A DNA stretch of 64,000 bases from a bacterium (GCA_028824015.1 JAPPFC010000030.1:98-64097), one strand, 5' to 3'; counted from the stretch's first letter, positions 2,924-64,000 are shown. Made by a program: numbers and translations. The notes: generated by a model not told the origin, from the sequence alone.

Positions 2924-3235
2924 TGTTCATCCTCAAGTATGCCGTTTCGGGACCTAACCGAACTCTCTGCCATGTGAAGGGACCCACCCCCCACTACGGC
3001 TCCTGACTCCACCCAAGCATCCCCCTGACGAAGACACCAGAAGGCTGCTCAGAATTCATCCGGTTTAGGGATGCTGGTGATCAAAGTGGGTCTCCTCGCA
3101 ACCCAGCCGCCTCCGCCAAATACCCGAAACCCTCCATGCCGTGCGAGGTGCAAGGTTCCACCCGCTTCGTGGTCACAGCGTAGTTCCGCTCCCCACGGAA
3201 AAAACTACCCTGCGTAGCCTGCCCGGCCTGGCGGC

Positions 3236-3790
3236 TCATATGGCGCCGCTGAACATCAAGCCAAAGATTGCTAGTAGCACTGCAGCGACGATGGTAGTTC
3301 CAACCACGATCCTTGCCGCCGTTTCCCTCGCCCAAGCCGCACCCGCGGTGTCAGCGGTGCGAGTCATGCCCCAAATGCCCGCCAGCACGGTCCAGGCACC
3401 GGTGCAGATCGCCCACCACATAACACCCAAACACCAGGCTCGGCCGTCACAGGGTGATGGGCCCCCAGACAGGATGCTCAAACCGATTAACGCCCCCACC
3501 GCAAAGGAGGCGGAGATCGCCATCAGCACTCCGCCGTAGCGCTCCACCACCTCGGTATAGCGCGCCGAGCCGTAGGACGCAACCGGCCCGCCGCACAGCA
3601 GCATGCCGAATAACGGCGGCACCACCACCACCGCATGCACTAGGTCGGGTACCCACTCCTGGGTACTAAGGGCCCACAAGAGCCCTACCACTCCTCCATA
3701 CCGGAACGCCCACCGCAAATAGGCCGCCATCATCTGATCTGGCACCTCGGCCAGCCACTCGACAAACTGCCCCAGCCACTGCCAGATCAT
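3236..3790 (-). CDS. Hypothetical multi-pass membrane protein
   Basis: 184-aa ORF with several hydrophobic helices (GGVVGLLWAL..., VLAGIWGM..., IVVGTTIVAAVLLAIFGLMF). It lies directly upstream of, and co-oriented with, the large ORF at 1-2923, inside the low-GC island. Confidence 0.45.
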   Translation of the reverse strand: MIWQWLGQFVEWLAEVPDQMMAAYLRWAFRYGGVVGLLWALSTQEWVPDLVHAVVVVPPLFGMLLCGGPVASYGSARYTEVVERYGGVLMAISASFAVGALIGLSILSGGPSPCDGRAWCLGVMWWAICTGAWTVLAGIWGMTRTADTAGAAWARETAARIVVGTTIVAAVLLAIFGLMFSGAI

Positions 3791-4417
3791 CGCAGCCGCC
3801 TTTCAGGCGGACTATCAAACCAGAAAGCAACCTCGTTAACGGCCGCCTCCCCCGACATTCGTGTAAGTTTCGAGGACGGCTCGGGTCCGGTGGCGGCTCT
3901 TGGCCTGATCGCGGACAGTACCCCACCAGACCCTGCACAAGAATCCGGTCAGTGATCCAAGTATACGGTTTCGCATCCCGCCACCACTGCCATCACCACC
4001 GCTGGAACAGCCCGGCACCACATCCGCCTCTAATTCTGTCACCGGCAACTCCATACGGATCTTCTCCTCAAGGAAGAAAACACCCTCCAATACACCACCT
4101 TCTTGTTAGCGGCGGTACTCGGATCGCACGACAGATACGGCTCCACCGCTTCCGGCCAGGCCAAGCGGGCAGACCTCACCCGCCACATCGCTAATCCCTG
4201 CAAACACTTCATCGACTCCCACTTCCCGCATCCTCCCTTTGTTGGTCCGATTTGTGATCTCGCTTCACGCAGCAAGCGTAATCGCGAAACGCCATCTAAC
4301 GCGGCAACTGCCCAGCGGGATTGTTCCAAGACATAGCGTAGAGATGCGGAGCAAGGAACCAGCGGCGTCGAATCTCGCCGCCTAAGTTGGTCTAAATCTG
4401 GCGTATCCCGACGTTAA

Positions 4418-4858
4418 CTACGGATTGTAGAAGTGCCATATGTTGAAGGCTGTCCCCTCTCCCAGTGTCGACGCTATTTGGTAGAGCGCGGCATCTGCAG
4501 TTACAAGAGGACGCTGGGGAGATATCTTCTCCAAAAGCACTGCATCGGCGAGGCCGACCTCCAAGTAGTAGGGGTTGCCGGCGGCCTCCCTACTCTCGAC
4601 TACCACCTCCTCACTCTCTTCGATTAGCTGACGCAGGCGCACCAGAAAACGAGCATCATCGGAGGCCTTTAGCAGATTGCAGGCCTCCGTAAGCGTGTTT
4701 GGAGTTACGATCACATGAGCAGTTACCTCAATGGCTCGCAACAGGGCGTCGTATTGTTCCGGCACGAAATTACGGGTTCTGCGATGCTTTCGAATCAGGG
4801 ATCTACTCACAGAGCCCACCACCAGTAGGACGAGTAGGTTGGCGTCGATAAACATCAA
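4418..4858 (-). CDS. PIN-domain protein (VapC-like putative toxin)
   Basis: 146 aa. N-terminal MMFIDANLLVLL has the conserved first Asp. Acidic residues are spaced as in PIN domains (D5, E in TEACNLL, D in GLADAV, D in VTADAAL). Its start overlaps the upstream small ORF by ATGA. Confidence 0.45.
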   Translation of the reverse strand: MMFIDANLLVLLVVGSVSRSLIRKHRRTRNFVPEQYDALLRAIEVTAHVIVTPNTLTEACNLLKASDDARFLVRLRQLIEESEEVVVESREAAGNPYYLEVGLADAVLLEKISPQRPLVTADAALYQIASTLGEGTAFNIWHFYNP

Positions 4859-5127
4859 CCCGAGGGATTGTCTCGATTCTTGACCGAAAGGACCTCACCC
4901 CGGCTATCCATCTCTACTACCTTGTGATACCGAGTACGTCCTCCGAAAGCCACCGCAATAGCATCCCCGCCACTTGAAAGCGGCCTCAAGAAGCTAACGG
5001 TGACTTTCCATCCGTCACCATAGGTCGCGAACACGACCTCCTCCAGACGAAGTTCCCCAACCCCTTCTCCAGCGAACACCTCTCCGACGGTCGCTTTTGC
5101 TTTCTTCACAGCCTCGGCTAAATCCAT
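4855..5127 (-). CDS. Small protein upstream of, and overlapping, the PIN gene (putative antitoxin partner)
   Basis: 90-aa ORF. Its stop overlaps the PIN start by 4 nt (translational coupling). Sequence not recognisable as RHH/AbrB/Phd. Confidence 0.35.
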   Translation of the reverse strand: MDLAEAVKKAKATVGEVFAGEGVGELRLEEVVFATYGDGWKVTVSFLRPLSSGGDAIAVAFGGRTRYHKVVEMDSRGEVLSVKNRDNPSG

Positions 5128-5713
5128 CCCTCTCTCATCTTACCCATTCCCTAGGGTGTGGCCGCCATCCCGATCTTCAGTCGAACCCGGCAGAAGGGTC
5201 GTGTCCCGCATGACGTGGACCCGGGAGGGAGGGCTTTGTAGGGCGAAGCTCGCTGATGGGACGGATCACATAGGGAGGCTCCGCACACGCGATTACTTCC
5301 CTTCCCGATAGCCCGCTGTCTTTAGCGCCCCTGCCTCGGTTAGCTGGTTCACAGCCGAGCCAACGACGACCGGAGGCCGACCGTTCATCCCAACGACCGA
5401 CGAAACGGTGAAGGTCGGACTTGCAGGGAACACGGCATTGAAGACACCGTAGGATTCGTGATGGCGATCATTGAAATTCCACTCCATACTTGAGTGGGCC
5501 CCTGGGCTGGGGCGGGTCTGACCCGATCGAAATTCGGCTTGGTGCCTTTTCTGGGATCTGTCGGCCTGCTCCCGGCCTGGGGGTGGGTAGTTCCCCTGAC
5601 AGAGCGGATGTGACCTGATAGGAGCCTTGCTCTTGCCACCGGAGTGGTCTGTCCACCGCTTTTTCAGGTCAAGGGGAAACAGGTAGCGGATTCTAGGAGA
5701 GGAGAAGAGGCTC

Positions 5714-6937
5714 ATGGCAGAGGATGATCGGGTTGTGTTCGGTGGGGTGGACACCCATCGAGATGTTCATGTCGCAGCGGTGGTGGATACGGCCGGTCGG
5801 GTGTTGGCGTCATCGCCGTTCCGAGCCGACGCCGCCGGCTATGAACAACTGCGTGACTGGCTGGGGTCACACGGCAATCTTGCCCGGGTCGGTGTGGAGG
5901 GTACCGGCAGCTACGGCGCCGGTTTGGCCCGCCATCTTATGAGAGTCGGTGTTGAGGTAGTGGAAGTGAACCGTCCGAACCGGCAGCTCCGCCGCCGGTA
6001 CGGCAAGACCGACACCACCGACGCCCAGGCCGCAGCGCGGGCGGCTCTGAACGGGCAGGCCAGCGGGGTGCCCAAAAGCAGCGATGGACCAGTCGAGGGG
6101 ATCAGGATGCTGTCGGTGGCTCGTCGTTAGGCGATCAAGGCCCGCACACAGGCCATCAACCAGATTCATGCTCTGGTGGTTACTGCTCCCGACCAGGTCA
6201 AACACCACCTATCGGGTCTTTCCCCAAAAGCCCGTGTCAAGGTCTGTGCCGCGTTCCGGCCTGGCACCGCTGACACCACCACCCGACACGCCAAACAGGC
6301 CCTACGACTGTTGGCCCGCCGATACCAGACCCTCACCGCAGAGATCAAAGAGATGGACACCGAGATCCGGCGTCTCTGCGCACAGGCCAATCCCGCGCTG
6401 TTAGCCACCCCCGGTGTAGGTCCTGACATCGCCGCCCCGCTGCTAATCGCCGCCGGTGACAACCCCGAACGGATGACCACAGAAGCGTCCTTCGCCGCGT
6501 TGTGCGGTGTGAGCCCCGTCCAGGCGTCCTCGGGCCATATCGTCCGCCATCGCTTGAACCGGGGTGGAAACCGCCAGGCCAACCAGGCGCTGTGGCGAAT
6601 AGCCACTATCCGCACCGTTAGAGACCAGCGCACCATCGCCTATGTGAAGAAACGCAAAGCAGAAGGCAAAACCCGCCGAGAGATCATCCGCTGCCTCAAA
6701 CGGCACATCGCCAGAGAGATCTATTACCTGTTGACCAACCCCCCGCCAACACCCTCCGGCGCCGATCTCCGCTGTCTACGCCGAAACGCCCAAACGACCC
6801 TTGCTCAGGCCGCCACCGCCCTCCACAGCCACGCCACGCGCATTTCACGACTCGAAAGAGGCCTCGACCACAACCACCAACTCGCTACCCGATACCACCA
6901 CTGGCTCACCACCCCCAAACCCGATTTGACAACATAG
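5714..6937 (+). mobile_element. IS110-family transposase gene interrupted by an in-frame TAG at 6128-6130 (N-terminal DEDD part 5714-6130; C-terminal part 6131/6176-6937)
   Basis: N-terminal GGVDTHRDVHVAAVVDTAGRVL...GVEGTGSYGAGLARHL is the IS110 DEDD catalytic region. Downstream ...PGVGPDIAAPLLIAAGDNPERMTTEASFAALCGVSPVQASSGHIVRHRLNRGGNRQANQALW... is the IS110 C-terminal domain. Both parts are in the same reading frame (5714 and 6176 both = 2 mod 3). The residues just after the stop (AIKARTQAINQIHALV) are the expected conserved linker. Confidence 0.8.
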
Positions 6938-6971
6938 GCGCATCCCACCCTGGGTTTGGTGGTTTTAGGCT

Positions 6972-7700
6972 AGCGGGTCTCCTTTCGGTCGGTGTTTTCT
7001 GGCTTGTGCTTGGTATGAGCGGAGGCGGTAGCTGTCGCCGGTGATGGTGAACACCACGCTTTTGTGGAGGAGTCGGTCGAGATGATGTCACGCCGAGGTT
7101 GGTGGTGAGGATGATCGATCCTTTCTGGTATCGGCGCGAGATCACTTGGAACAGTGTGGCGGCGTCTTCTGCCGGCATTGGGAGATAACCGAGTTCGTCG
7201 ATGATCAACACTTTCGGGGTGTTGAAGAACCGCATGGTTCTGGCCCATCGTCCTTGTAGGGCTGCTTTGCGGCAGCGTGCGGCCAGGTCGGCTGCGGTGG
7301 TGTAGTACACCTTGTGTCCGGTGTCCACCGCAGCCCGTCCGAGGATGACCGCCAGCATGGTTTTGCCTACTCCTGGTGGTCCGATGAATAACACGTTGGT
7401 GGCGTCAGCCAGATACGCCCCGGTGACCAGTTCCCGTATGAGTTTCTCGTTGATGCTGGGTTGTGCTCCGAAGTCGAAGTCTTCCAGTTTCCATCGGGTG
7501 GGGAAGTTCGCCAGTTTCAACCGGGTTGCCCATCGGCGGTGTTCGGCGGTTTCCACCTCGACCCGCAACAGCTCCTCGAGGAACTCGGTATGACCCGCAC
7601 GGTTCTGTCGTGCCCGTTCCAGGTGGGTGGGGAGCGCCTCGGCAGCAGCCGCCAGGTTCAGGTAGGCCAAATGTGAGAGGAAGGACTCTGCGCCAAGCAA
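6972..7700 (-). pseudogene. istB: IstB-like ATP-binding helper of an IS21-family element; frameshifted near the C-terminus and lacking a cognate istA
   Basis: Walker A GPPGVGKT, Walker B LIIDELGYLP and IILTTNL match IstB. The conserved tail SVVFTITGDSYRLRS sits in a different frame from ~7090. The next upstream gene on this strand is pfkA, not istA. Confidence 0.6.
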
Positions 7701-54873: not shown

Positions 54874-55512
54874 TCAGCCAGTCGATTCTGTTGTCGAACC
54901 TGGGGCAACACTGCCCATCAACTTCGCAAAGAGGGCAAGCCAGTTTTGTTCGGACGGAATGTAGGGATCCGCCAGTCCGGCAGCCAACAACAGATGGGTT
55001 CCGATTCCGATCGCTTGACAAAACAGCGTCAAGGCAGCGGTGTCCTGTTGGGAGTCGCAGAATCCCTCGTCCTTGCTCCTCTCGATCATCACGCCCAACT
55101 GGTGGGCTTGATCGTTTAGGAAACCCTTGAGGCGTTCTTGGATGACCTCGTTGTTGCGGGCGCTGCCGAACACCTGCACCAGCACGTCTTTTGTTTGTTC
55201 AGGCTGCAACAGTTGGGCTGCCCACCCCAGGACCATAACGGTTGTGGGCAAGTCCGCGATACCCATGTCCCTGATCCTCTGTTCGGGCAATAACTGCTCG
55301 AAGAGATGGTCGAGGGCAGCGGCCATCAGATCACTTTTGTGAGGCCACCGCGGGTATACCGCACCAGGGGTGACCCCGGCGCGGCGGGCGATGTTGCTGA
55401 TGACTGCCTTGTCATACCCGCGTTCTACGAACTCTTCGGCGGCAGCCTCCAGCACCCGCCTCGCGGTCTCCTCCGAGCCGCGTCGCCGACGTAATCTGAC
55501 TTCGGTAGGCAT
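54874..55512 (-). CDS. TetR-family transcriptional regulator
   Basis: N-terminal HTH (RRVLEAAAEEFVERGYDKAVISNIARRAGVTPGAVYPRWPHKSDL). Confidence 0.75.
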   Translation of the reverse strand: MPTEVRLRRRRGSEETARRVLEAAAEEFVERGYDKAVISNIARRAGVTPGAVYPRWPHKSDLMAAALDHLFEQLLPEQRIRDMGIADLPTTVMVLGWAAQLLQPEQTKDVLVQVFGSARNNEVIQERLKGFLNDQAHQLGVMIERSKDEGFCDSQQDTAALTLFCQAIGIGTHLLLAAGLADPYIPSEQNWLALFAKLMGSVAPGSTTESTG

Positions 55513-55789
55513 AGCACTCTCCCGGAAAGAACTATCTTAGATTACCTCCGAGGGGGCCCGTGGCACGGGAGAACTCAACCCTGCCCGCGCCGGACCAGCG
55601 AAACAAATCGCCTAAACCCCTCAACCCCCACCATCCCCTGGACCGGCGCGCACCCTGTTACCGACAACATCGGCCCTCACCACCAAGACCCTCCCCCGGG
55701 CAGAACAGACCCCGCTCACTCTCACAACCACCATGGAATTCCCCAATAGGAACGATTACGCACGACATTTCCCGCGCACGGATAGCGCT

Positions 55790-55960
55790 TCCCGTCGGGG
55801 TAGCCCCGGCCCCGCAGGCATAGGGGCCGTGTTGTGCAGAGGCGATCCAGGGGACTGCAACCACGTGGACGCTGTGGCGCGGAGCATCGGCCGGGCCACC
55901 AACAACGAAGCTGAATATCGAGCAGTTATAGGTGCTAGGGCACTCTGTGTTTCGGGCAGG
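55790..55960 (+). pseudogene. Fragment of an RNase H-like domain (first ~55 aa only)
   Basis: GSPGPAGIGAVL...VDAVARSIGRATNNEAEYRAVIGARAL matches the N-terminal half of RNase H (GNPGPAGYGAVV...GRATNNVAEYRGLIAGL). The sequence then degenerates. Lower GC. Confidence 0.35.
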
Positions 55961-56246
55961 CGATCGGCACCCAACCCGCAGCCTTGGTCTTGGAGGTTGT
56001 TTTCGGCTGGGCCGCATCCTGCAACTTCCCATCCGACCCCAAGAGGAGCCGCTTCCACGATCTCCCTCGGGTCACCCCCAAGGGTGCCTACGCACGGGGT
56101 TAGAAAGCAGCAAGTCCAGAGACAACGGGGTTGCCCGGCTTGTCTTTCGGCTGTTAATGTGGGCCGAGATGCTTGAGGTTCTTGCCGCTGCGGCGCTGTT
56201 GGCGGGCGGTTGGTTCCAGCGTTATAGCCCTTGAGGCATTTCGTTC

Positions 56247-56840
56247 TTGGGTCAGTTCGGCCCGACTTTTGCTACTAGTCGGGGTGTCCGGCGCTTCTCT
56301 CACAGCGGCCTGTACGCGTTGGGTGTGTTGGTGTCTTCAACGCTGTTCTTACTGGGGGTCTCGGCTGCGGGGGTGTGGTTCAAGGAGATGGCGGGCCGCC
56401 GGACCTCGGTAGCTGTTGCATTGGCGCTGGCTGGACTGCTGTTGCTCTTGGACGGGATGAGGTTGTGGGGCGGGCGTTCTACTTCTTTCGGGCCGAAGCG
56501 GCAGACTCCTTACGACTGGCGGTTGAGAGGGCGGGTGGGTGTTGTCGCCTGGGGTGTCGACACGGGTTTGCCTGTTTCGACGGTGAGAGCCACGCCGTTG
56601 CCGGTGCTCGGTGTGATCCTTGCTGCTACTGGTCATTCGCTCTGGTTTTACGGACTGTTCTATGGGTTCGGTTTGACGTTGGGTGTGCTGGCCGGGTTGC
56701 CGTGGGCCCGCTCGTTCGTCCGGATTGATTGGGCGATGGCGGAACTGCAACGCAGGCATCGTAGGATCAACCCGGTTCTACTGGTCGTTCCGAGTGGCCT
56801 GACGGTGGTTGCGTTGGTGTCAGCGTTAGTCCTTGGCTAA
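56247..56840 (+). CDS. Hypothetical membrane protein (4-5 TM)
   Basis: 197 aa, hydrophobic helices. First gene of the co-oriented cluster. Confidence 0.45.
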   Translation: MGQFGPTFATSRGVRRFSHSGLYALGVLVSSTLFLLGVSAAGVWFKEMAGRRTSVAVALALAGLLLLLDGMRLWGGRSTSFGPKRQTPYDWRLRGRVGVVAWGVDTGLPVSTVRATPLPVLGVILAATGHSLWFYGLFYGFGLTLGVLAGLPWARSFVRIDWAMAELQRRHRRINPVLLVVPSGLTVVALVSALVLG

Positions 56841-56872
56841 TAGTTGTAGCTACAACTTAGCTCACTAACATC

Positions 56873-57307
56873 ATGTCGAGTGTGAGCGACATGCGGCGTT
56901 ACACCCGACCACGCCCGGGCCTTTATGGATCGAGTGAGTTCCTCGAGTTTCTCGGACGGCCGCTGGCGCAACCCGCTCAGCGTGATCGAGGTGGGGCTGT
57001 TGAGTCCGGAGCGGAGGCAGGGCATGGTGTTCTGGAGTTGGGCGTCAGCGAATCAAGACCAGACAGTGGATTCGTGAACGTGAGGCTGGACAGCACCGGC
57101 CAAGTCGTGCGGGCCAGGTTCAGCGGCTTCATCCCGGGGTATCGGCTGGCACCCGGGGATGAGTTGTGCGTGGAACTCGTGGACGATGGGTGGCGGACCG
57201 TTCCCGAAGTGCGTCACACTATCAAGCACCGCGATCGCATTGAATTCTGGGGGGTTAACCGCCTGACCGGTGAGTTCCGGCTCCTAGCCGAGAATTATTA
57301 CGAGTGA
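56873..57307 (+). CDS. Hypothetical soluble protein
   Basis: 144 aa, no recognisable motifs. Confidence 0.4.
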   Translation: MSSVSDMRRYTRPRPGLYGSSEFLEFLGRPLAQPAQRDRGGAVESGAEAGHGVLELGVSESRPDSGFVNVRLDSTGQVVRARFSGFIPGYRLAPGDELCVELVDDGWRTVPEVRHTIKHRDRIEFWGVNRLTGEFRLLAENYYE

Positions 57308-57314
57308 TCAAGCC

Positions 57315-57926
57315 TTGAACCTGGAGTGGATGGGTGTTCCGGTGCTGGTGGTGGCCGCGTTGCTTCTCTTAAGCGGCCTGCCGAAGATCGCAGATCCCAG
57401 ACCCGTGGCCGGAACCATGGAGTGGCTGTACGATCAGGTATCGGCACGCTGGCGCGGTTCGGGCGGTTCCCCGGTGGATCTGTCTCGTCCGGGCCGGTTG
57501 CTGGGACTGGCGGAGGTGGGTGTGGCCGGTTGGGTGGTGCTGGGACCGTCGTGGGGGGCGGCGGTCGCTTTGACTCTGCTGGCCGCGGGGTTCGCGGCGG
57601 CGGGCCTTGTGGGCGCCTTGTCTGACGTGCAGGTGGCTTGTGCCTGTTTCGGCAGGCAGGGGCGACCGCTGGGTTACTTTCATGTCCTGCTGTTTCCGGT
57701 CTGGGTAGGAGCGGCGTGGTGCGTGGGTCGGGTCGAAGGGTTCGGAGGGTTGGATGAGCGTTTGCTGGCGTTGGGGCTGTGCTGTGTTGGTGTCTTGTGC
57801 GTGTACCTGGTGAGGATGTGGGCGGCGTTGATGCCGTTGGCTCAGCACCGGCGTCGGGCAGCGATGCGGGTGGGTACTGTGACGCGGGTCGCCCATGGAG
57901 AGGCAGAGTGGTTGTTGCCGCGTTGA
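57315..57926 (+). CDS. MauE/DoxX-like membrane protein
   Basis: 203 aa, 4-5 TM, with the N-terminal VAALLLLSGLPKIADP pattern of the MauE family. Confidence 0.5.
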   Translation: MNLEWMGVPVLVVAALLLLSGLPKIADPRPVAGTMEWLYDQVSARWRGSGGSPVDLSRPGRLLGLAEVGVAGWVVLGPSWGAAVALTLLAAGFAAAGLVGALSDVQVACACFGRQGRPLGYFHVLLFPVWVGAAWCVGRVEGFGGLDERLLALGLCCVGVLCVYLVRMWAALMPLAQHRRRAAMRVGTVTRVAHGEAEWLLPR

Positions 57927-58498
57927 TCGTCTCCATAGTGGCCCTGGTGGTGAGTGCTCTGTGCGCGCTGGCGGTGATGGAGTTGCTAGCAAGTCGGTCC
58001 CACGGCAGGACGGAGGTAGATGACTCTCTGATCGAAGAGTTCGAGGTGCCGGCGAGCGTGGCTGGCACCGCCGCCAGTTCCCACGGTCTGCCGGAACGGA
58101 TCGACCATCTGGACCGTCATCTGGCTCTGTTCCTGTCCCCCATGTGTGCTCACTGCGCGGCGATCGCCTCCTCCCTGGGCGGGATGGTGCCTGATGACTT
58201 GACGGTGGTGGTAACCGCTTCTGCTCCCGAACGTATGCGTGTCTGGTCCCGGGATCGGGGCTTGTCGACTGACGACGTGGTCTTTGACGACGACATGTCC
58301 ATCGTGGGAAGCCTCAAGGTGGCGTCCAGCCCTACGGTGGTGGGCTTCGGCGCGGGCCGGGTGGTCTTTGCGGCCGGCATCGGAGGTAAGGCCGCGTTGG
58401 AGAAGTTGTTGGAGCAATGCTCTTCTGGGTTCTCCGAGGACATCTCTGATCTCTTGGGGCCAACGTCCGGGCAGGAACCCGGCGGCTCCCCGGGGTGA
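57908..58498 (+). CDS. Membrane-anchored thioredoxin-fold thiol:disulfide oxidoreductase (MauD/TlpA-like, CAHC active site)
   Basis: GTG start overlapping the MauE stop by 19 nt. N-terminal TM anchor, then LFLSPMCAHCAAI (CxxC). Confidence 0.55.
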   Translation: MVVAALIVSIVALVVSALCALAVMELLASRSHGRTEVDDSLIEEFEVPASVAGTAASSHGLPERIDHLDRHLALFLSPMCAHCAAIASSLGGMVPDDLTVVVTASAPERMRVWSRDRGLSTDDVVFDDDMSIVGSLKVASSPTVVGFGAGRVVFAAGIGGKAALEKLLEQCSSGFSEDISDLLGPTSGQEPGGSPG

Positions 58499-61400
58499 TT
58501 GCTTCGGCGGGTCCTCACGGTCGCGGCCAGGCGGGTCTCTGCGGGCGGCTGGCAGTGATATTCGTGACGGTGTTGCTCCTGATCACCGCGTTGGGACCGC
58601 TGGCGGCGGCTCAGGATGGAACGGGATCGGGTTCGGGTGTGTTTGGGGATGTGGGTCCGGGGCCGCATTGGGCTGCGGTTGAGGCGTTGGCGTCGTTGGG
58701 GGTGTTCGAGGGTACCGAGTGTGGTGAGGGGTTCTGTCCTGACGACCCGGTGCAGCGTTGGGTGATGGCGGTGTGGTTGGTGCGGGTGCTGGACCTGGCT
58801 TTGCCGGCGGTCGATGAGCCGCGGTTCGTCGATGTTGAGGCGTCGCAGTGGTGGTGGCGTTATGTGGAGGCGTTGGCGGAGGCTGGGGTGACGCGGGGTT
58901 GTGCCGAGGAGCCGGCGCGGTTCTGTCCGGACGGTTCGGTGTCTCGGTCGGAGATGGCGTCGTTTCTGGTGCGGGCGTTCGGGCTGGAGCCGGCGTTGGA
59001 GAGCGCGGGGTTTGTGGATGTGCCGGTGGGTGGTGCGAGTTGGCTTGATATCGAGGCTTTGGCTGCGAGTGGGGTGACTTCTGGTTGCGATGCGGAGGGG
59101 CCTCGGTTCTGTCCCGATCAGCCCACCACCCGCGCTCAGATGGCAACGTTCCTGTATCGGGCCATGACTCTTGGTGCGGGTTTTGGTGTGTTTGGGGATG
59201 TGGGTCCGGGGCCGCATTGGGCTGCGGTTGAGGCTTTGGCGTCGTTGGGGGTGTTCGAGGGTACCGAGTGTGGTGAGGGCTTCTGTCCTGACAAGCCGGT
59301 GCAGCGTTGGGTGATGGCGGTGTGGTTGGTGCGGGTGCTGGACCTGGCTTTGCCGGCGGTCGATGAGCCGCGGTTCGTCGATGTTGAGGCGTCGCAGTGG
59401 TGGTGGCGTTATGTGGAGGCGTTGGCGGAGGCTGGGGTGACGCGGGGTTGTGCCGAGGAGCCGGCGCGGTTCTGTCCGGACGGTTCGGTGTCTCGGTCGG
59501 AGATGGCGTCGTTTCTGGTGCGGGCGTTCGGGCTGGAGCCGGCGTTGGAGAGCGCGGGGTTTGTGGATGTGCCGGTGGGTGGTGCGAGTTGGCTTGATAT
59601 CGAGGCTTTGGCTGCGAGTGGGGTGACTTCTGGTTGCGATGCGGAGGGGCCTCGGTTCTGTCCCGATCAGCCCACCACCCGCGCTCAGATGGCGACATTC
59701 ATCAAAAGGGCCCACCCTGCCCTGGTGGCGTGTCCCAACGACATGCGGGAATCCGACCCCGAGGACGACACCAGCGGAGGTGGAGGCGGCGCCGGTGTCG
59801 GTGTCGGTGGAGGCGGCGGTGGTAGCGGTGGAGGCGGCGGTGGTAGCGGTGGAGGTGGAGGTGGCGGTGGACGTAGAACCCCAACCCCCGTTCCGACTCC
59901 GCAAGTTCCCGGAACGCCCCAGAACGTGTCGGCGGTGGGAGGGGACGAGTCGGTTGCCGTGGAGTGGTCGCCGCCGACCGATGACGGGGGGTCCCCGGTG
60001 ACCGGCTACCTGATCCGCTGGAAGCGGGCAACGCGAGCGACGTACAGCGATTCGAGACTGGCTGGTGCTGCGGCCCGCAGCATCGAGATCACCGGTCTGC
60101 TGCCCGCCACGCAGTATGACGTGTCCGTGGCTGCTGTCAGCGATGTCGGGGAGGGTGGCGCCGCAATCGTGCGGGCCACTACCCTGGATCCGCCTCCCGG
60201 CGCTCCCGGCGCCCCTCAGAACGTGTCGGCGGTGGGAGGGGACGAGTCGGTTGCCGTGGAGTGGTCGCCGCCGACCGATGACGGGGGGTCCCCGGTGACC
60301 GGCTACCTGATCCGCTGGAAGCGGGCAACGCGAGCGACGTACAGCGATTCGAGACTGGCTGGCGCTGCGGCCCGGAGCATCGAGATCACCGGTCTGCTGC
60401 CCGGTACGCAGTATGACGTTTCCGTGGCTGCAGTCAACGCATTGGGCACCGGCAGGTTCGAGGTCGGGCAGGCCACTACATTGGGCACCCCGCCCGATCC
60501 TCCCGGCCCGCCCCTCTCTGTGAACTTGGTTCGCGGTGTCGAGAGTCTCACCGTCACATGGTCGCCGCCCGCCGACGACGGTGGTACCCCGATCACGGGC
60601 TATGCCATGAGGTGGAGGAAGGAGAGTCAGCCGACGTCCTGGCTGCAGCGGTCGGTCGGATCCAACGAGCGCAGCACCGTTCTCGCCGACTTGGAGCGGG
60701 GGGAAGAATATCGAGTCGAGGTCTGGGCTGTCAACGATGCGGGAAATGGAACCAAGGTCGTCGAAATGGCCGAGCCGCTTGAGCTACCGGGCACGCCTCT
60801 GAGTGTGGCAGTGGTCGGCGGCATGGGAAGCCTGACCGTCTCGTGGTCACCGCCAACCGAAGACGGCGGATCGCCGATCACCGGATACCAGGTCCGTTGG
60901 AAACGGACCAACGAGTCGAGCTTCACCGACTCGACGAATCTGGGATCGGCAGTCCGTAGCTACCAAATCGTGAATCTGGACCCGGGCGTCGACTACCAGG
61001 TTGCGGTGGCAGCCGGAAACGTCGTCGGTCTCGGACCGGATTCCCAGGAGCAGTCCAAGGTGCCCGACGTGCCGCAAGCTCCGCTACTGCAGGAACCGGT
61101 GGTGGGTGAGGACAGTTTCATGCTGGAGTGGGCGCAACAAGAGGATGACACGGTGCCAATAACCGGGTACGAACTGCGGTGGAAACTGGCAGGGGCCACC
61201 AGTTACACCAACGAGCGACAGCTCTCGGCCGCCGACCGCAGTGTGGAGGTGCGCAACCTGACCGCCGGCACCGACTACGACGTGGCCCTCAACGCCACAT
61301 CCGCCAATGGCGATGGGCGGATCTCCGAAACGGAGGCGCAACTTATCGACGGACCGGCGCCGCCGGGTCCGCCCCGGGAACTGTCCGCGGTGCTCAGCCT

Positions 61401-63432
61401 CGACGGTTCCACAGTGTCCTGGTCGGCTCCCTACAGCGACGGCGGCTCGGCCATCACCAAGTACAAACTCAGTTGGTCCGGTCACACCAGCGGAGAAGCA
61501 GAGGTCACCGGTCTGAGCTACGAATCCGACGCGTTCAGTCTGAGCACCACCCACATGTTCCGCGTCTCCGCAGTCAATGCCGAGGGCGAAGGCACGCCAG
61601 CCCTGGCTGCCGCCACCATCGCCGGTCTCCCGCCGCCGCCCCAGGATCTGAGACTCGTGCCCGGCGACGGGAAGCTAACGGTCGCCTGGCTTTTGGTAAG
61701 GGGACCCTCGATCCCGCTGATCAGCGCCGGGCGGGTGACCGCTTACCGCGTGCAGTGGAAAAGTGGGGACCAGGACTACAGCGAGGACCGGCAGGCCGAG
61801 GTGCCGTCTCTTGACGACCTGCGTCACGACGATGTCGCGGTGCGCCATCAGCACGAGATCCCGTCGCTGACCAACGGAACGGTCTACACGGTACGGGTCA
61901 TGGCAGTGAGCGAGACGGGGGTTAGCCCGGGCGCCGAGGCGTCGGGCGCTCCTGCCGCGCCCAACCCCAACGCACCCACCGACCTGACTCTCTCTGTAGA
62001 TGTCGAAGAAGTGGATGTGCAATGGTCCGCACCCTCGGTGTCGAGTGGCGTCACCGTGGACGGTTACCGGGTCCAGTGGCGTCTCGACGGCGAGGAATAC
62101 GGTACGGAGGACTGGACCGAGGTGTCCGACACCTCGGCCACCGTCGAAGACCTGACTCCGGGTGAGTTGTACTTCATCAGGGTGACAGCGCTGCTCTCGG
62201 ACGACTCGGGCGGGTGGGCCGAGGCCCGTATCGCGCCCTTGGCCCTGCCCGGCGAGCCACAAGACCTCACCGCAGTCGGCAGCGGCGGTCTGGCGACCGT
62301 ATCGTGGTCCGCTCCTGATCCGGTCGACGGGGGTCCGGTGCTCGCCTACCGAGTGAGGTGGAGGGCCTACATCAAACAGGAGATGTACACAACACAGACC
62401 CAAATCGTTGCCGACCTACCCAACCGGGTGGCGACAAGAGTCGGAGTGGAGGCGGTCAACTCACTGGGAATAGGTCCATTGGTATGGAAGTCGGTAACGC
62501 CCCCGGCGCCGACCCGTTCCATCCGGGACCTGCAAGTCCGGTCAGGCGACGGCGTCCTGGACATCTCATGGCGGGCACCAACAGGTCAACCGAGCCGCGA
62601 CTACACGGTGCAGTGGCGGGCTTCCGACGAAACCTATGATGACTCCCGGTCGGCTCAAACCACGGACCGCCAGTACGAGATCACCAGCCTGAGGAGCGAT
62701 ATCCGGCATTTCGTGCGGGTCCGGGCGGAGAAGGGCGCCGACCTCGGGCAGTGGACCGAGATCTCGGCTCAGCCGGAGGGCTTCACGGATCGGCCGGACG
62801 CGCCGACCGGGATCGCCACCGCGGGCTCCGACGAGCGGCTGCTGGTCTCCTGGTCGGCCCCGTCCAACATCAACGGCTCCACGATCGGCGGGTACCTCGT
62901 GGAGTGGCGAACGGCCGGAGGAGAATACAACTCAGACGACCAGGCGGAAACGGATGCGTCGACGCTCAACCACCAGATCAGCGCGCTGACGAACGGCACT
63001 ATCTATGAGGTGCGGGTCCGGGCGCTGACCAGCGACGACCAACCCGGCGCGGCCATAACGGCGAGCGCAGTGCCGCTAGGTACTCCCGGAGCGCCCACCG
63101 AAACCGCTGTCGATGCCCGCCACGACATGCTGCTGGTGTCGTGGCTGCCGCCCACCAGCGACGGTGGAGCGCCCATCGACCACTACAGAATCTCCTGGAG
63201 GAGCGAGACGCAGAGCTTCCCCTCCAATGACTGCTCCGACCGGGTAACCTATGTCAGGTGGCCGAATGCCGTCATCACATTCGAAGGGTTCACACACCTC
63301 ACCGGTCGCTTCTTCGATTCCGTCAACCTTGTTCAGGGCCGCGAGTACTTCGTGCGGATCCAAGCCGAGACCTCCGAAGGGCGCGGTCCGGCAGCCGAGG
63401 TCTCAGCAAGAGTGCGCTTTGCTCCCCGCTAA
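58495..63432 (+). CDS. Giant secreted cell-surface protein: signal peptide, 2 x (3 SLH domains), Gly-rich linker, ~12 fibronectin type III domains
   Basis: GTG start overlapping the upstream stop (GTGA). Signal LLLITALGPLAAAQD. SLH-like units (FGDVGPGPHWAAVEALASLGVFEGTECGEGFCPD..., FVDVEASQWWWRYVEALAEAGVTRGCAEEPARFCPD..., FVDVPVGGASWLDIEALAASGVTSGCDAEGPRFCPD...). Linker GGGGGAGVGVGGGGGGSGGGGGGSGGGGGGGG. Repeated FN3 modules (GSPVTGYLIRWKR...YDVSVAAV). Confidence 0.8.
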   Translation: MIASAGPHGRGQAGLCGRLAVIFVTVLLLITALGPLAAAQDGTGSGSGVFGDVGPGPHWAAVEALASLGVFEGTECGEGFCPDDPVQRWVMAVWLVRVLDLALPAVDEPRFVDVEASQWWWRYVEALAEAGVTRGCAEEPARFCPDGSVSRSEMASFLVRAFGLEPALESAGFVDVPVGGASWLDIEALAASGVTSGCDAEGPRFCPDQPTTRAQMATFLYRAMTLGAGFGVFGDVGPGPHWAAVEALASLGVFEGTECGEGFCPDKPVQRWVMAVWLVRVLDLALPAVDEPRFVDVEASQWWWRYVEALAEAGVTRGCAEEPARFCPDGSVSRSEMASFLVRAFGLEPALESAGFVDVPVGGASWLDIEALAASGVTSGCDAEGPRFCPDQPTTRAQMATFIKRAHPALVACPNDMRESDPEDDTSGGGGGAGVGVGGGGGGSGGGGGGSGGGGGGGGRRTPTPVPTPQVPGTPQNVSAVGGDESVAVEWSPPTDDGGSPVTGYLIRWKRATRATYSDSRLAGAAARSIEITGLLPATQYDVSVAAVSDVGEGGAAIVRATTLDPPPGAPGAPQNVSAVGGDESVAVEWSPPTDDGGSPVTGYLIRWKRATRATYSDSRLAGAAARSIEITGLLPGTQYDVSVAAVNALGTGRFEVGQATTLGTPPDPPGPPLSVNLVRGVESLTVTWSPPADDGGTPITGYAMRWRKESQPTSWLQRSVGSNERSTVLADLERGEEYRVEVWAVNDAGNGTKVVEMAEPLELPGTPLSVAVVGGMGSLTVSWSPPTEDGGSPITGYQVRWKRTNESSFTDSTNLGSAVRSYQIVNLDPGVDYQVAVAAGNVVGLGPDSQEQSKVPDVPQAPLLQEPVVGEDSFMLEWAQQEDDTVPITGYELRWKLAGATSYTNERQLSAADRSVEVRNLTAGTDYDVALNATSANGDGRISETEAQLIDGPAPPGPPRELSAVLSLDGSTVSWSAPYSDGGSAITKYKLSWSGHTSGEAEVTGLSYESDAFSLSTTHMFRVSAVNAEGEGTPALAAATIAGLPPPPQDLRLVPGDGKLTVAWLLVRGPSIPLISAGRVTAYRVQWKSGDQDYSEDRQAEVPSLDDLRHDDVAVRHQHEIPSLTNGTVYTVRVMAVSETGVSPGAEASGAPAAPNPNAPTDLTLSVDVEEVDVQWSAPSVSSGVTVDGYRVQWRLDGEEYGTEDWTEVSDTSATVEDLTPGELYFIRVTALLSDDSGGWAEARIAPLALPGEPQDLTAVGSGGLATVSWSAPDPVDGGPVLAYRVRWRAYIKQEMYTTQTQIVADLPNRVATRVGVEAVNSLGIGPLVWKSVTPPAPTRSIRDLQVRSGDGVLDISWRAPTGQPSRDYTVQWRASDETYDDSRSAQTTDRQYEITSLRSDIRHFVRVRAEKGADLGQWTEISAQPEGFTDRPDAPTGIATAGSDERLLVSWSAPSNINGSTIGGYLVEWRTAGGEYNSDDQAETDASTLNHQISALTNGTIYEVRVRALTSDDQPGAAITASAVPLGTPGAPTETAVDARHDMLLVSWLPPTSDGGAPIDHYRISWRSETQSFPSNDCSDRVTYVRWPNAVITFEGFTHLTGRFFDSVNLVQGREYFVRIQAETSEGRGPAAEVSARVRFAPR
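58636..59733 (+). repeat. 549-bp near-identical tandem repeat (a triple-SLH block duplicated). A further 297-bp near-identical repeat lies at 59917-60510 (first two FN3 modules).
   Basis: Identical 66-aa antisense ORFs at 58848-59048 and 59397-59597. Only a few substitutions between copies (e.g. CPDDPV vs CPDKPV). Confidence 0.8.
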
Positions 63433-63459
63433 GCGGATGAACCCACCCCACTTCAATAT

Positions 63460-63879
63460 ATGAAGGCCGCTGCGGGGAAGCGATCCGGCCGGGTTCCTCA
63501 GGCTTTGCCTTCAGCCGCGGAGCAGAGTCGTGAGGCCTTGGCCTTCCCGCAGGGCAGTCCTCAAAGCCGCCGACAATTCCTGCGCATCGCGTCCAGGGCA
63601 GCCTTGTTAGTTCTGGCCGCCGGGGCGCGGGTCGTTCTCGACGCGTCGCCGGCGAACGCAAGAGAAGACCTGGACGTGGGATGCTGCGTACTCGCCCAGT
63701 ATCCGTCCCAATGGTGTCCTTTCATGTGCCAGGACTCCGGTCTTGTCCTGCGGTGCTGGACATGCAACTCAGGCCAATGCAAGTGCTGCGAGTGCACTGC
63801 CTTCGCGAGCGACGAGGAGGAGCCCAGTTGCTTCACCGGTTCTGCGTTCGCCTGCTCCTACAGGTCGGGTTGCTGCTGA
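63460..63879 (+). CDS. Tat-signal, cysteine-rich small secreted protein (14 Cys in the ~70-aa mature region)
   Basis: Twin-arginine motif SRRQFLRIAS, then an h-region and an ANA cleavage site. Mature part DVGCCVLAQYPSQWCPFMCQDSGLVLRCWTCNSGQCKCCECTAFASDEEEPSCFTGSAFACSYRSGCC. Unusually long (~38 aa) n-region. Confidence 0.6.
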   Translation: MKAAAGKRSGRVPQALPSAAEQSREALAFPQGSPQSRRQFLRIASRAALLVLAAGARVVLDASPANAREDLDVGCCVLAQYPSQWCPFMCQDSGLVLRCWTCNSGQCKCCECTAFASDEEEPSCFTGSAFACSYRSGCC

Positions 63880-64000
63880 GGATCGCGGTCCCCACCGCCG
63901 GTTTCAACCACCAGCAGCGACACTTACGAAAGTAGCATCGGATGGTCGCCCGACGGAAACGCATCCTATTTGTGAGTAGAACAGATGGTGACGCTGAACT

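Follow-up and report, generated by a model that had tools for sequence, protein, structure and literature searches.

The window analysed here is a stretch of 64,000 nucleotides from a bacterium (GCA_028824015.1 JAPPFC010000030.1:98-64097), part of a 97.8-kb metagenome scaffold (ENA ERZ23495471). Close to its 3' end, it encodes a protein of 1645 amino acids, hereafter called the giant, in which two tandem and nearly identical trimers of S-layer homology (SLH) domains precede a glycine-rich linker and twelve FN3 domains. The giant is most likely a secreted, wall-anchored surface protein of a bacterium of the Acidimicrobiia, itself most likely sponge-associated; its relatives point to a sponge as the source of the sample. 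Taken as a whole, it is likely that the protein combines a doubled SLH anchor stapled by disulfides with an FN3 stalk, that its repeats are homogenised, and that a local redox module is encoded next to it.

The SLH anchor and its cysteines

The open reading frame (ORF) of the giant has the same length in the ENA and NCBI gene calls, and a 99% identical protein is present in a sister sample and in a metagenome-assembled genome (MAG) at NCBI. Pfam detected six SLH stretches (PF00395, 99.4 bits against a cut-off of 20.8) and twelve fn3 stretches (PF00041, 446.7 bits, above the gathering score), which confirms the architecture of six SLH and about twelve FN3 domains given in a preliminary description of the window. 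The FN3 domains are about 91 residues in size and were delimited with a self-built hidden Markov model (HMM) to residues 472-562, 571-661, 670-760, 765-855, 860-949 and 957-1041 (#1-6), and 1046-1152, 1158-1247, 1252-1335, 1336-1426, 1434-1525 and 1531-1639 (#7-12). The linker had been described as 32 residues of pure Gly, Ser and Val; it is indeed a glycine-rich separator of anchor and stalk, but it comprises 33 residues, one of them alanine. Comparable acidic and glycine-rich linkers follow the SLH block in relatives.

The SLH units were compared with known structures. A profile of one trimer and 25 homologues matched the SLH domains of SbsB, Sap and SpaA in the PDB (E-values from 1.8e-18 to 8e-5), with all three units aligned. 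An AlphaFold2 model of one trimer (pLDDT 93.1, pTM 0.89) was used for a Foldseek search, in which Sap-SLH (6bt4/3pyw) was the best PDB match, with TM scores of 0.82-0.84 and an E-value of 1.9e-10 to 3pyw; SpaA-SLH came next and was followed by a sharp drop in score. Model, structural search and profile agree on the three-pronged spindle of Sap and SpaA. The units, previously called SLH-like, are genuine SLH domains by HMM, by profile search against the PDB and by predicted fold. A self-built Cys-SLH HMM run over all six frames detected no second SLH protein in the window.

Within the 26 aligned sequences, G88, G150, R41, R104, R166, W72 and W73 are invariant or nearly so. The flip glycine is kept in SLH units 2 and 3 and is not invariant in unit 1, and the TRAE-type arginine is found in all three units, as VQRW, VSRSE and TTRAQ in the giant. 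The roles of both residues have been mapped by Blackler et al. (PMC6081394). Conservation of these ligand residues therefore makes binding of a pyruvylated wall polymer by the giant plausible. After cleavage of the signal peptide, each tandem trimer would fold into a three-pronged spindle, and both would probably bind wall polysaccharide in a non-covalent manner, forming a bivalent anchor. In known cases, the polysaccharide ligand of SLH domains is pyruvylated. Firmicute SLH trimers (Bacillus anthracis Sap, 3PYW/6BT4; Paenibacillus alvei SpaA, 6CWC; Geobacillus stearothermophilus SbsB, 4AQ1) share with the giant the Pfam family, the three-pronged fold, the flip glycine, the TRAE-type arginine and the N-terminal location after a signal peptide. 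Unlike them, the giant displays a cysteine pair in each unit, flanking the groove-lining loop, as well as the tandem doubling; its host is an actinobacterium, probably a sponge symbiont, and its ligand is putative.

A conserved cysteine pair in each SLH unit, with the spacing C-x(5-7)-C, had been noted previously. The pair itself was found again, but units 1 and 4 have the spacing C-x4-C and all others C-x7-C. The first cysteine directly follows the flip glycine (G-C) in units 2, 3, 5 and 6 and stands three residues after the flip-glycine position (G-T-E-C) in units 1 and 4, while the second is located between a conserved Phe/Tyr and a proline (F-C-P). In canonical SLH units, these two positions are occupied by Tyr/Phe and Arg/Ser. 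Conservation of the pair, which the preliminary description had proposed as a check, was assessed across 240 homologues: 696 of 717 SLH units contain both cysteines, a lone cysteine occurs in only about three units, and a few canonical units have neither.

The distribution of the pair was investigated with a pattern scan over one genome per species, which is specific to this Cys-SLH subfamily and says nothing on the occurrence of the pair outside Acidimicrobiia. More than 558 matching stretches were obtained. The best 80 were examined and all belong to Acidimicrobiia MAGs (Ca. Spongiisociaceae, Ca. Spongiisocius, Ca. Aldehydirespirator and others), many of them named sponge symbionts, with six or seven copies per genome among these top matches alone. 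On sequence evidence, the pair is the mark of a large SLH subfamily in largely sponge-associated Acidimicrobiia and is not peculiar to the giant, so that the initial view of cysteines in SLH domains as an oddity of this protein does not hold. In aerobic Actinobacteria, exported proteins have even numbers of cysteines, while Firmicutes exclude cysteine (PMC2823432); the SLH pair fits this actinobacterial habit. Literature searches yielded no paper describing Cys-paired or disulfide-bonded SLH domains and no relevant paper on SLH in sponge symbionts or on 'Spongiisocius'; an SLH paper on LysBT1 mentions disulfides and reports that none form.

Such a both-or-none distribution, seen here in an exported protein, speaks for a disulfide within the domain, so that each pair is most likely a short-range disulfide stapling the loop that lines the ligand groove. 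This loop is mobile in SpaA (PMC6081394). Alternatively, the cysteines could bind metal or act as a redox switch instead of forming structural disulfides. Each unit does contain exactly two of them beside the ligand groove, and SLH-anchored selenocysteine proteins of the thioredoxin type in the same lineage (see below) hint at thiol chemistry in the wall. Nevertheless, such a role is hardly probable at all, given that the giant is extracytoplasmic, that the pattern is both-or-none, and that cysteine numbers are even over whole proteins, as expected of disulfides in Actinobacteria (PMC2823432).

Outside the SLH units, the giant contains C16, located in the signal peptide, and two cysteines in the mature protein, C413 and C1580, which are 1167 residues apart. 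The non-SLH cysteine count is even in 71 of 75 N-terminally anchored homologues (binomial p 7e-17). When the post-SLH cysteine is present, the number of downstream cysteines is odd (35 of 37 homologues), and when it is absent, this number is even (36 of 38). The orphan downstream cysteine always lies within an FN3 motif of the DSxCSxRR type. These co-occurrence statistics indicate a long-range disulfide, and C413 and C1580 are thus probably a conserved, co-occurring pair which links the base of the protein to its tip. Such a bond might close a loop within one molecule or tie several molecules into a mesh.

Internal repeats and their origin

The near-exact duplication of the SLH block reported initially was confirmed: with a period of 549 nt, positions 58636-59151 and 59185-59700 differ at 6 of 516 nt and share 398 nt of perfect identity. 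A 297-bp repeat had also been reported for the first two FN3 modules. Its period is correct, but near-identity covers only about 220 of the 297 nt; within this core, 6-7 of 223 nt are mismatched and the longest identical run is 146 nt. FN3 #1 and #2 are 87% identical at the protein level, against 24-49% for all other FN3 pairs.

Doubling of the trimer is recurrent. Six units were counted in 20 and three in 73 of the 97 long SLH-bearing homologues. In about ten separate lineages, the two trimers of one protein share 96-99% identity, compared with 53-77% for trimers taken from different proteins; the repeat period varies between 182 and 193 aa, and the lineage-specific linker sequence was copied too. 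At the DNA level, identity of the SLH repeat reaches 98.9%, including a perfect run of 395 nt, in a relative on a circular 4.59-Mb contig, 98.1% in a second relative, and 91% in an older pair. The older pair of protein P0122 is 86-91% identical.

Comparison of the window strain with its sister strain revealed 21 nucleotide differences in the giant gene, 20 of which are paired at a distance of 549 nt (310/859, 333/882, 582/1131) or 297 nt (1491-1506/1788-1803). The mismatches between copies, 6 in the SLH and 7 in the FN3 repeat, are identical in both strains. Shared mismatches between copies together with mirrored differences between strains imply that the duplication predates the split of the strains and that the copies were homogenised later. 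This suggests that the SLH trimers and FN3 #1/#2 are under concerted evolution and do not result from a single recent duplication; the near-identity would be maintained by gene conversion or unequal recombination. The very recent origin proposed earlier is doubtful, considering the near-identical halves in about ten lineages and the mirrored strain differences.

Two alternatives were considered. Each gene could have undergone its own very recent duplication in the absence of concerted evolution, as the variable periods and the duplication of lineage-specific linkers along with the trimer are what independent events would give. About ten lineages would, however, each have had to duplicate the trimer during the last 1-4% of divergence, the mismatches between copies are common to both strains although 20 of the 21 strain differences occur in both copies, and P0122 retains an older pair. 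Independent duplication is thus a serious competitor that we nevertheless find rather improbable.

The second alternative is that copy number or copy identity is an artefact of short-read metagenome assembly. A perfect run of 398 nt exceeds typical read length, and paired differences inside this core are expected when a collapsed node is passed twice. Yet the assemblies of two samples and a separate NCBI MAG contig of different length yield the same 1645-aa protein with the same repeat copy number, copy-specific mismatches are present at both edges of the repeat, the same architecture and identity are found on Mb-scale single contigs (one circular, 4.59 Mb, 28x), and the identical FN3 core of 146 nt can be phased by reads. 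The repeats are regarded as real and an artefact as very unlikely.

Concerted evolution remains the preferred explanation, and it has a known counterpart. In Gram-positive surface proteins of the Rib/alpha-C type, tandem repeats show concerted evolution. As in these proteins, the repeats of the giant are nearly identical within the gene, diverged between genes, and carry strain differences copied across repeats. Unlike them, the giant homogenises the wall-anchor module itself, a whole SLH trimer, in two copies only.

The gene cluster and its probable redox module

The giant gene is part of a cluster (Table 1) with the order memb197, orf144, MauE, CxxC protein, giant and mini-protein ORF. The last 19 nt of the MauE gene are also the first 19 nt of the CxxC gene, whose TGA stop in turn shares bases with the GTG start of the giant (GTGA). 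Because of these overlapping start and stop codons, the giant appears to be co-transcribed with the MauE/CxxC pair. A scan of positions 55000-64000 gave terminator-like sites at a frequency not above that of shuffled sequence and four promoter-like sites, all of them within the FN3 repeats and on the minus strand; the limits of the operon are not set by these sites.

Table 1. Position of the giant, its parts and the neighbouring genes in the window.
Feature	Position	Strand	Remarks
memb197	56247..56840	+	Accessory gene; 197-aa multi-pass membrane protein without Cys
orf144	56873..57307	+	144 aa, no evident signal peptide
MauE-family membrane protein	57315..57926	+	Pfam PF07291; CXC motif ('ACACFG')
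CxxC protein	57908..58498	+	196 aa; N-terminal membrane helix; TlpA/ResA/CcmG-like thioredoxin fold; C-A-H-C
Giant surface protein ORF	58495..63432	+	GTG start, 1645 aa
Putative Sec-type signal peptide	58495..58611	+	aa 1-39; hydrophobic core, AAA/QDG; read from the translation
SLH trimer 1	58639..59181	+	Units aa 49-108, 109-171, 172-229; Cys 76/81, 136/144, 198/206
SLH trimer 2, near-identical tandem copy	59188..59730	+	Units aa 232-291, 292-354, 355-412; Cys 259/264, 319/327, 381/389
Cys413 codon, post-SLH cysteine	59731..59733	+	F-I-G-P-C-P in relatives
Gly-rich linker	59773..59871	+	aa 427-459; G27 S3 V2 A1; then Pro/Thr-rich stretch
FN3 array, 12 domains	59908..63411	+	Pfam fn3; boundaries by self-built HMM
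Near-identical FN3 #1/#2 core	59920..60439	+	59920-60142 vs 60217-60439, period 297
Cys1580 codon, last FN3	63232..63234	+	'SNDCSDRV'; D-[DES]-S-x-C-S-x-R-R in relatives; presumed partner of Cys413
Tat-signal Cys-rich mini-protein ORF	63460..63879	+	139 aa, unannotated; RRQFLR leader

MauE of the window matches its Pfam family with 34.4 bits against a cut-off of 27, and the C-A-C motif is present in this protein and in its homologue at locus L085, so that activity is predicted. MauE was shown to replace DsbB in E. coli in a manner requiring the CXC motif, and a thioredoxin-fold partner such as MauD was proposed (preprint 10.64898/2026.03.05.709764). The adjacent CxxC protein was investigated by structure prediction. 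Its AlphaFold2 model (pLDDT 88.9) consists of a helix at residues 2-30 and a beta-alpha-beta fold, and Foldseek against the PDB returned TlpA, ResA, CcmG, DsbE and DsbF with probability 1.00, in agreement with the thioredoxin-like nature first assigned to it. The model places the CxxC motif at the N-terminus of helix 1 of a thioredoxin fold with a predicted N-terminal membrane anchor, and C80 and C83 are invariant in 38 homologues. At the sequence level, no match to Pfam (Redoxin, AhpC-TSA, Thioredoxin) or NCBIfam (MauD) was obtained for the protein; weak Thioredoxin_2 matches occur in 4 of the 38 homologues (best E-value 0.017), and the best PDB sequence match has an E-value of 0.96. By analogy, MauE and the TlpA-like CxxC protein probably constitute a local oxidative-folding module of the DsbB/DsbA type.

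Another conserved member of the cluster is a small cysteine-rich protein with a leader for twin-arginine translocation (Tat). Its family comprises 28 cluster representatives among 1.84 billion proteins. In the alignment, R37 is nearly invariant and R38 invariant; behind the motif RRxFLR come a hydrophobic stretch and PAxA, in line with predicted export by the Tat pathway. The mature part of about 65 aa contains 14 cysteines in the window copy, 12 of which are conserved across the family. Weak Pfam matches to TAT_signal and to the Rieske leader were seen in two members each; for the window ORF and 25 family members, no Pfam family beyond signal-peptide models and no PDB match was found, and MauA, the light chain of methylamine dehydrogenase, was not matched in Pfam or PDB. 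The ORF was missed by both the ENA and the NCBI callers; at the site, NCBI calls instead a 57-aa gene (L003 15268-15441) which overlaps the ORF and runs beyond it. Two copies in L086 are uncalled as well, and under-annotation seems to be systematic in this family. Pairing of a lone cysteine of the giant with a free one of the mini-protein was considered and rejected, as 14 cysteines, an even number, were counted in each of the mature mini-proteins considered (that of the window and two in L085).

The composition of the cluster was compared across relatives. At every giant locus examined (two in L085, three in L086, two in L087, and L088 and L089), the FN3 giants of the GPCP/CSxRR family are flanked by pairs of orf144 and mini-protein genes. 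A tblastn search with orf144 gave 10 copies beside giants and the mini-protein gene in L085-L089, where the mini-protein copies also stand beside giants, and in relatives orf144 almost always adjoins the mini-protein gene. Homologues of memb197 with 49-63% identity occur beside FN3 giants in L085, L086, L087 and L089. Neither memb197 nor orf144 has a match in Pfam, NCBIfam or the PDB. MauE and CxxC were found within 10 kb of the giant at four of six loci (window, L085, L087, L089), in L089 with the same local order of MauE, CxxC and giant as in the window, and CxxC homologues are present on short contigs (22.7, 27.7 and 110 kb) together with giants. At 81 other Cys-SLH loci, examined over flanks of 3 kb in 80 cases, no MauE or CxxC homologue was found nearby. 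Recurrence at giants and absence from these 81 loci tie the redox pair to this cluster and not to Cys-SLH proteins in general.

This bears on the suggestion that the SLH pairs are the natural clients of the adjacent CxxC protein. The adjacency and the overlapping genes, suggestive of one operon, are as described, the pair recurs at those four of six loci, and it resembles an oxidative DsbB/DsbA analogue. The absence of both genes from the 81 other loci nevertheless means that many Cys-SLH proteins are oxidised by something else; a local C-x4-7-C pair is an easy substrate, and the cluster always contains the mini-protein with its 12 conserved cysteines and a giant with a long-range pair. Hence it is unlikely that the module exists to oxidise the six SLH pairs, and the mini-protein is at least as likely a client. 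By analogy with MauE/MauD/MauA, the clients would most likely be the mini-protein and/or the C413-C1580 pair, and the SLH staples are presumably made by general machinery. As in the MauE/MauD/MauA system, a CXC-containing MauE adjoins a membrane-anchored CxxC protein of thioredoxin fold, and a small cysteine-rich exported protein with a twin-arginine leader is co-encoded. The leader of MauA is of the Tat type. Unlike in that system, the mini-protein does not match MauA (Me-amine-dh_L), the CxxC protein matches neither MauD nor any NCBIfam or Pfam family, no other mau genes are present, and a giant SLH-FN3 protein belongs to the unit.

A more far-reaching proposal, offered here tentatively and with low confidence, is that FN3 giants, mini-protein, orf144, memb197 and the MauE/TlpA-like pair form one dedicated surface-assembly system of Acidimicrobiia that are probably sponge symbionts. 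The module would form the C413-C1580 bond, closing the FN3 array into a wall-anchored loop or linking molecules head-to-tail into a covalent mesh, and the mini-protein, supposed to be knotted, would serve as cofactor, cap or ligand. If true, this would represent a previously undescribed bacterial coat of eukaryote-like domains cross-linked by disulfides.

Further features of the window and its surroundings were recorded. Between 56000 and 60000, GC skew is +0.21 to +0.27 and AT skew about -0.32, limited to the accessory genes and, within the giant, to its SLH and linker region, which probably reflects coding rich in Gly, Val, Ala and Trp. The first 6 kb have a G+C content of 0.56-0.60, against about 0.65 elsewhere, and a fragment of an IS110-family transposase (PF02371) lies at 6176-6937; positions 1-7000 may be an insertion zone of mobile elements. 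About 0.9 kb past the 3' end of the window, a 640-aa protein without recorded Pfam match is encoded on the minus strand (L001 16379-18301). It gives nine weak matches to the Cys-SLH HMM (whole-sequence E-value 4.6e-9, each domain insignificant) and may be a divergent repeat protein.

Passenger domains and the probable sponge-symbiont context

In the homologues, the Cys-SLH trimer is N-terminal, rarely C-terminal, and fused to fn3 arrays, Calx-beta, cadherin-like, LRR, RCC1, S8 peptidase or OpuAC domains. Domains of the fn3, cadherin (CAD), LRR and Calx-beta classes are enriched in sponge-symbiotic Actinobacteriota (PMC11706023), a study in which SLH or S-layer does not occur and the display of such proteins on the cell is not discussed. 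The lineages (Aldehydirespiratoraceae/UBA11606 and relatives) and the passenger classes are the same as here; beyond that study, the passengers are here seen joined to a Cys-paired SLH anchor, and FN3 giants lie within a redox gene cluster. Since these passenger classes coincide, the giant is read as an SLH-anchored 'eukaryotic-like' FN3 stalk: the flexible linker would lead to twelve FN3 domains resembling the fn3 proteins of sponge symbionts, and by analogy a role in contact with the host or the matrix may be proposed.

The giant had been labelled an S-layer-type protein, a term that is unproven, as Cys-SLH is here a general anchor for many different passengers. A true S-layer subunit, self-assembling into a two-dimensional lattice, would be in keeping with N-terminal SLH trimers as in Sap, SbsB and SpaA, and the conserved base-to-tip cysteine pair could cross-link molecules into a mesh. 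The same anchor, however, bears many unrelated passengers, several FN3 giants are encoded per genome, and no lattice-forming domain was recognised in the giant. Long fn3 arrays are more typical of stalks and adhesins than of lattices. A lattice-forming function is thus judged highly unlikely, and the stalk is preferred.

Several related loci deserve mention. Giants occur as tandem or divergent pairs in L085 (4069-14968), L087 (3432-14938) and L088 (13200-20216), with other SLH-anchored giants as neighbours, such as a 2338-aa protein with cadherin, arylsulfotransferase-like and SLH domains, which suggests surface-protein islands in these genomes. In the 4.59-Mb relative (L086 1615-6615), an SLH-FN3 giant is broken into three consecutive ORFs of 562, 294 and 784 aa, and a nearby orf144 copy is also shortened, by pseudogenisation or by frameshift errors of the assembly.

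In L004 (6001-7113, Ca. Spongiisocius sp., OZ244917.1), the annotation of an SLH-trimer homologue ends early at an in-frame TGA, and similar cases were found in L007, L008, L009, L010, L013, L019, L041, L047 and L062. These homologues, many of them among the closest to the SLH trimer, are about 250-270 aa long and end in '...FWFWAEW'. The TGA occupies the first position of a thioredoxin motif, W-U-P-x-C, the frame remains open for about 100 more residues with a TlpA-like domain, and some 12 nt downstream of the TGA lies a hairpin in which compensatory changes are seen from locus to locus. From these features, the proteins are probably SLH-anchored thiol-disulfide oxidoreductases containing selenocysteine.

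Against the overall interpretation of the giant, the following points have to be weighed. The evidence for its disulfides consists of conservation and the both-or-none pattern, and the co-occurrence of post-SLH and downstream cysteines (Fisher p 1e-16) is uncorrected for shared ancestry. Among the 30 largest ORFs of the window, Pfam revealed ordinary metabolism, with neither a pyruvyl transferase of the csaB type (PS_pyruv_trans) nor wall-polymer genes. The paired strain differences inside the 398-nt SLH core could also come from a collapsed node in the assembly graph, an origin that is less probable for the FN3 core of 146 nt. Proteins of the TlpA/ResA type frequently act as reductases, and the oxidative direction of the CxxC module is a prediction. 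Finally, the host-interaction role of the FN3 stalk is drawn from enrichment statistics in the literature.

Altogether, the data point to one expanded wall-anchor module of largely sponge-associated Acidimicrobiia, the Cys-paired SLH trimer, which is sometimes doubled, and to a defined family of FN3 giants in which a long-range cysteine pair is conserved. Classical SLH proteins stem from Firmicutes, and the rule that SLH domains lack cysteines reflects this bias of the studied examples and not the SLH fold. The anchor itself would be a clear example from nature of a functional domain under concerted evolution. The surrounding cluster is uncharacterised and includes a MauE-type module for disulfide formation as well as an unannotated family of Tat-signal mini-proteins. 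The Cys-SLH and GPCP/DSxCSxRR motifs are simple markers for mining the surface proteomes of uncultured symbionts.

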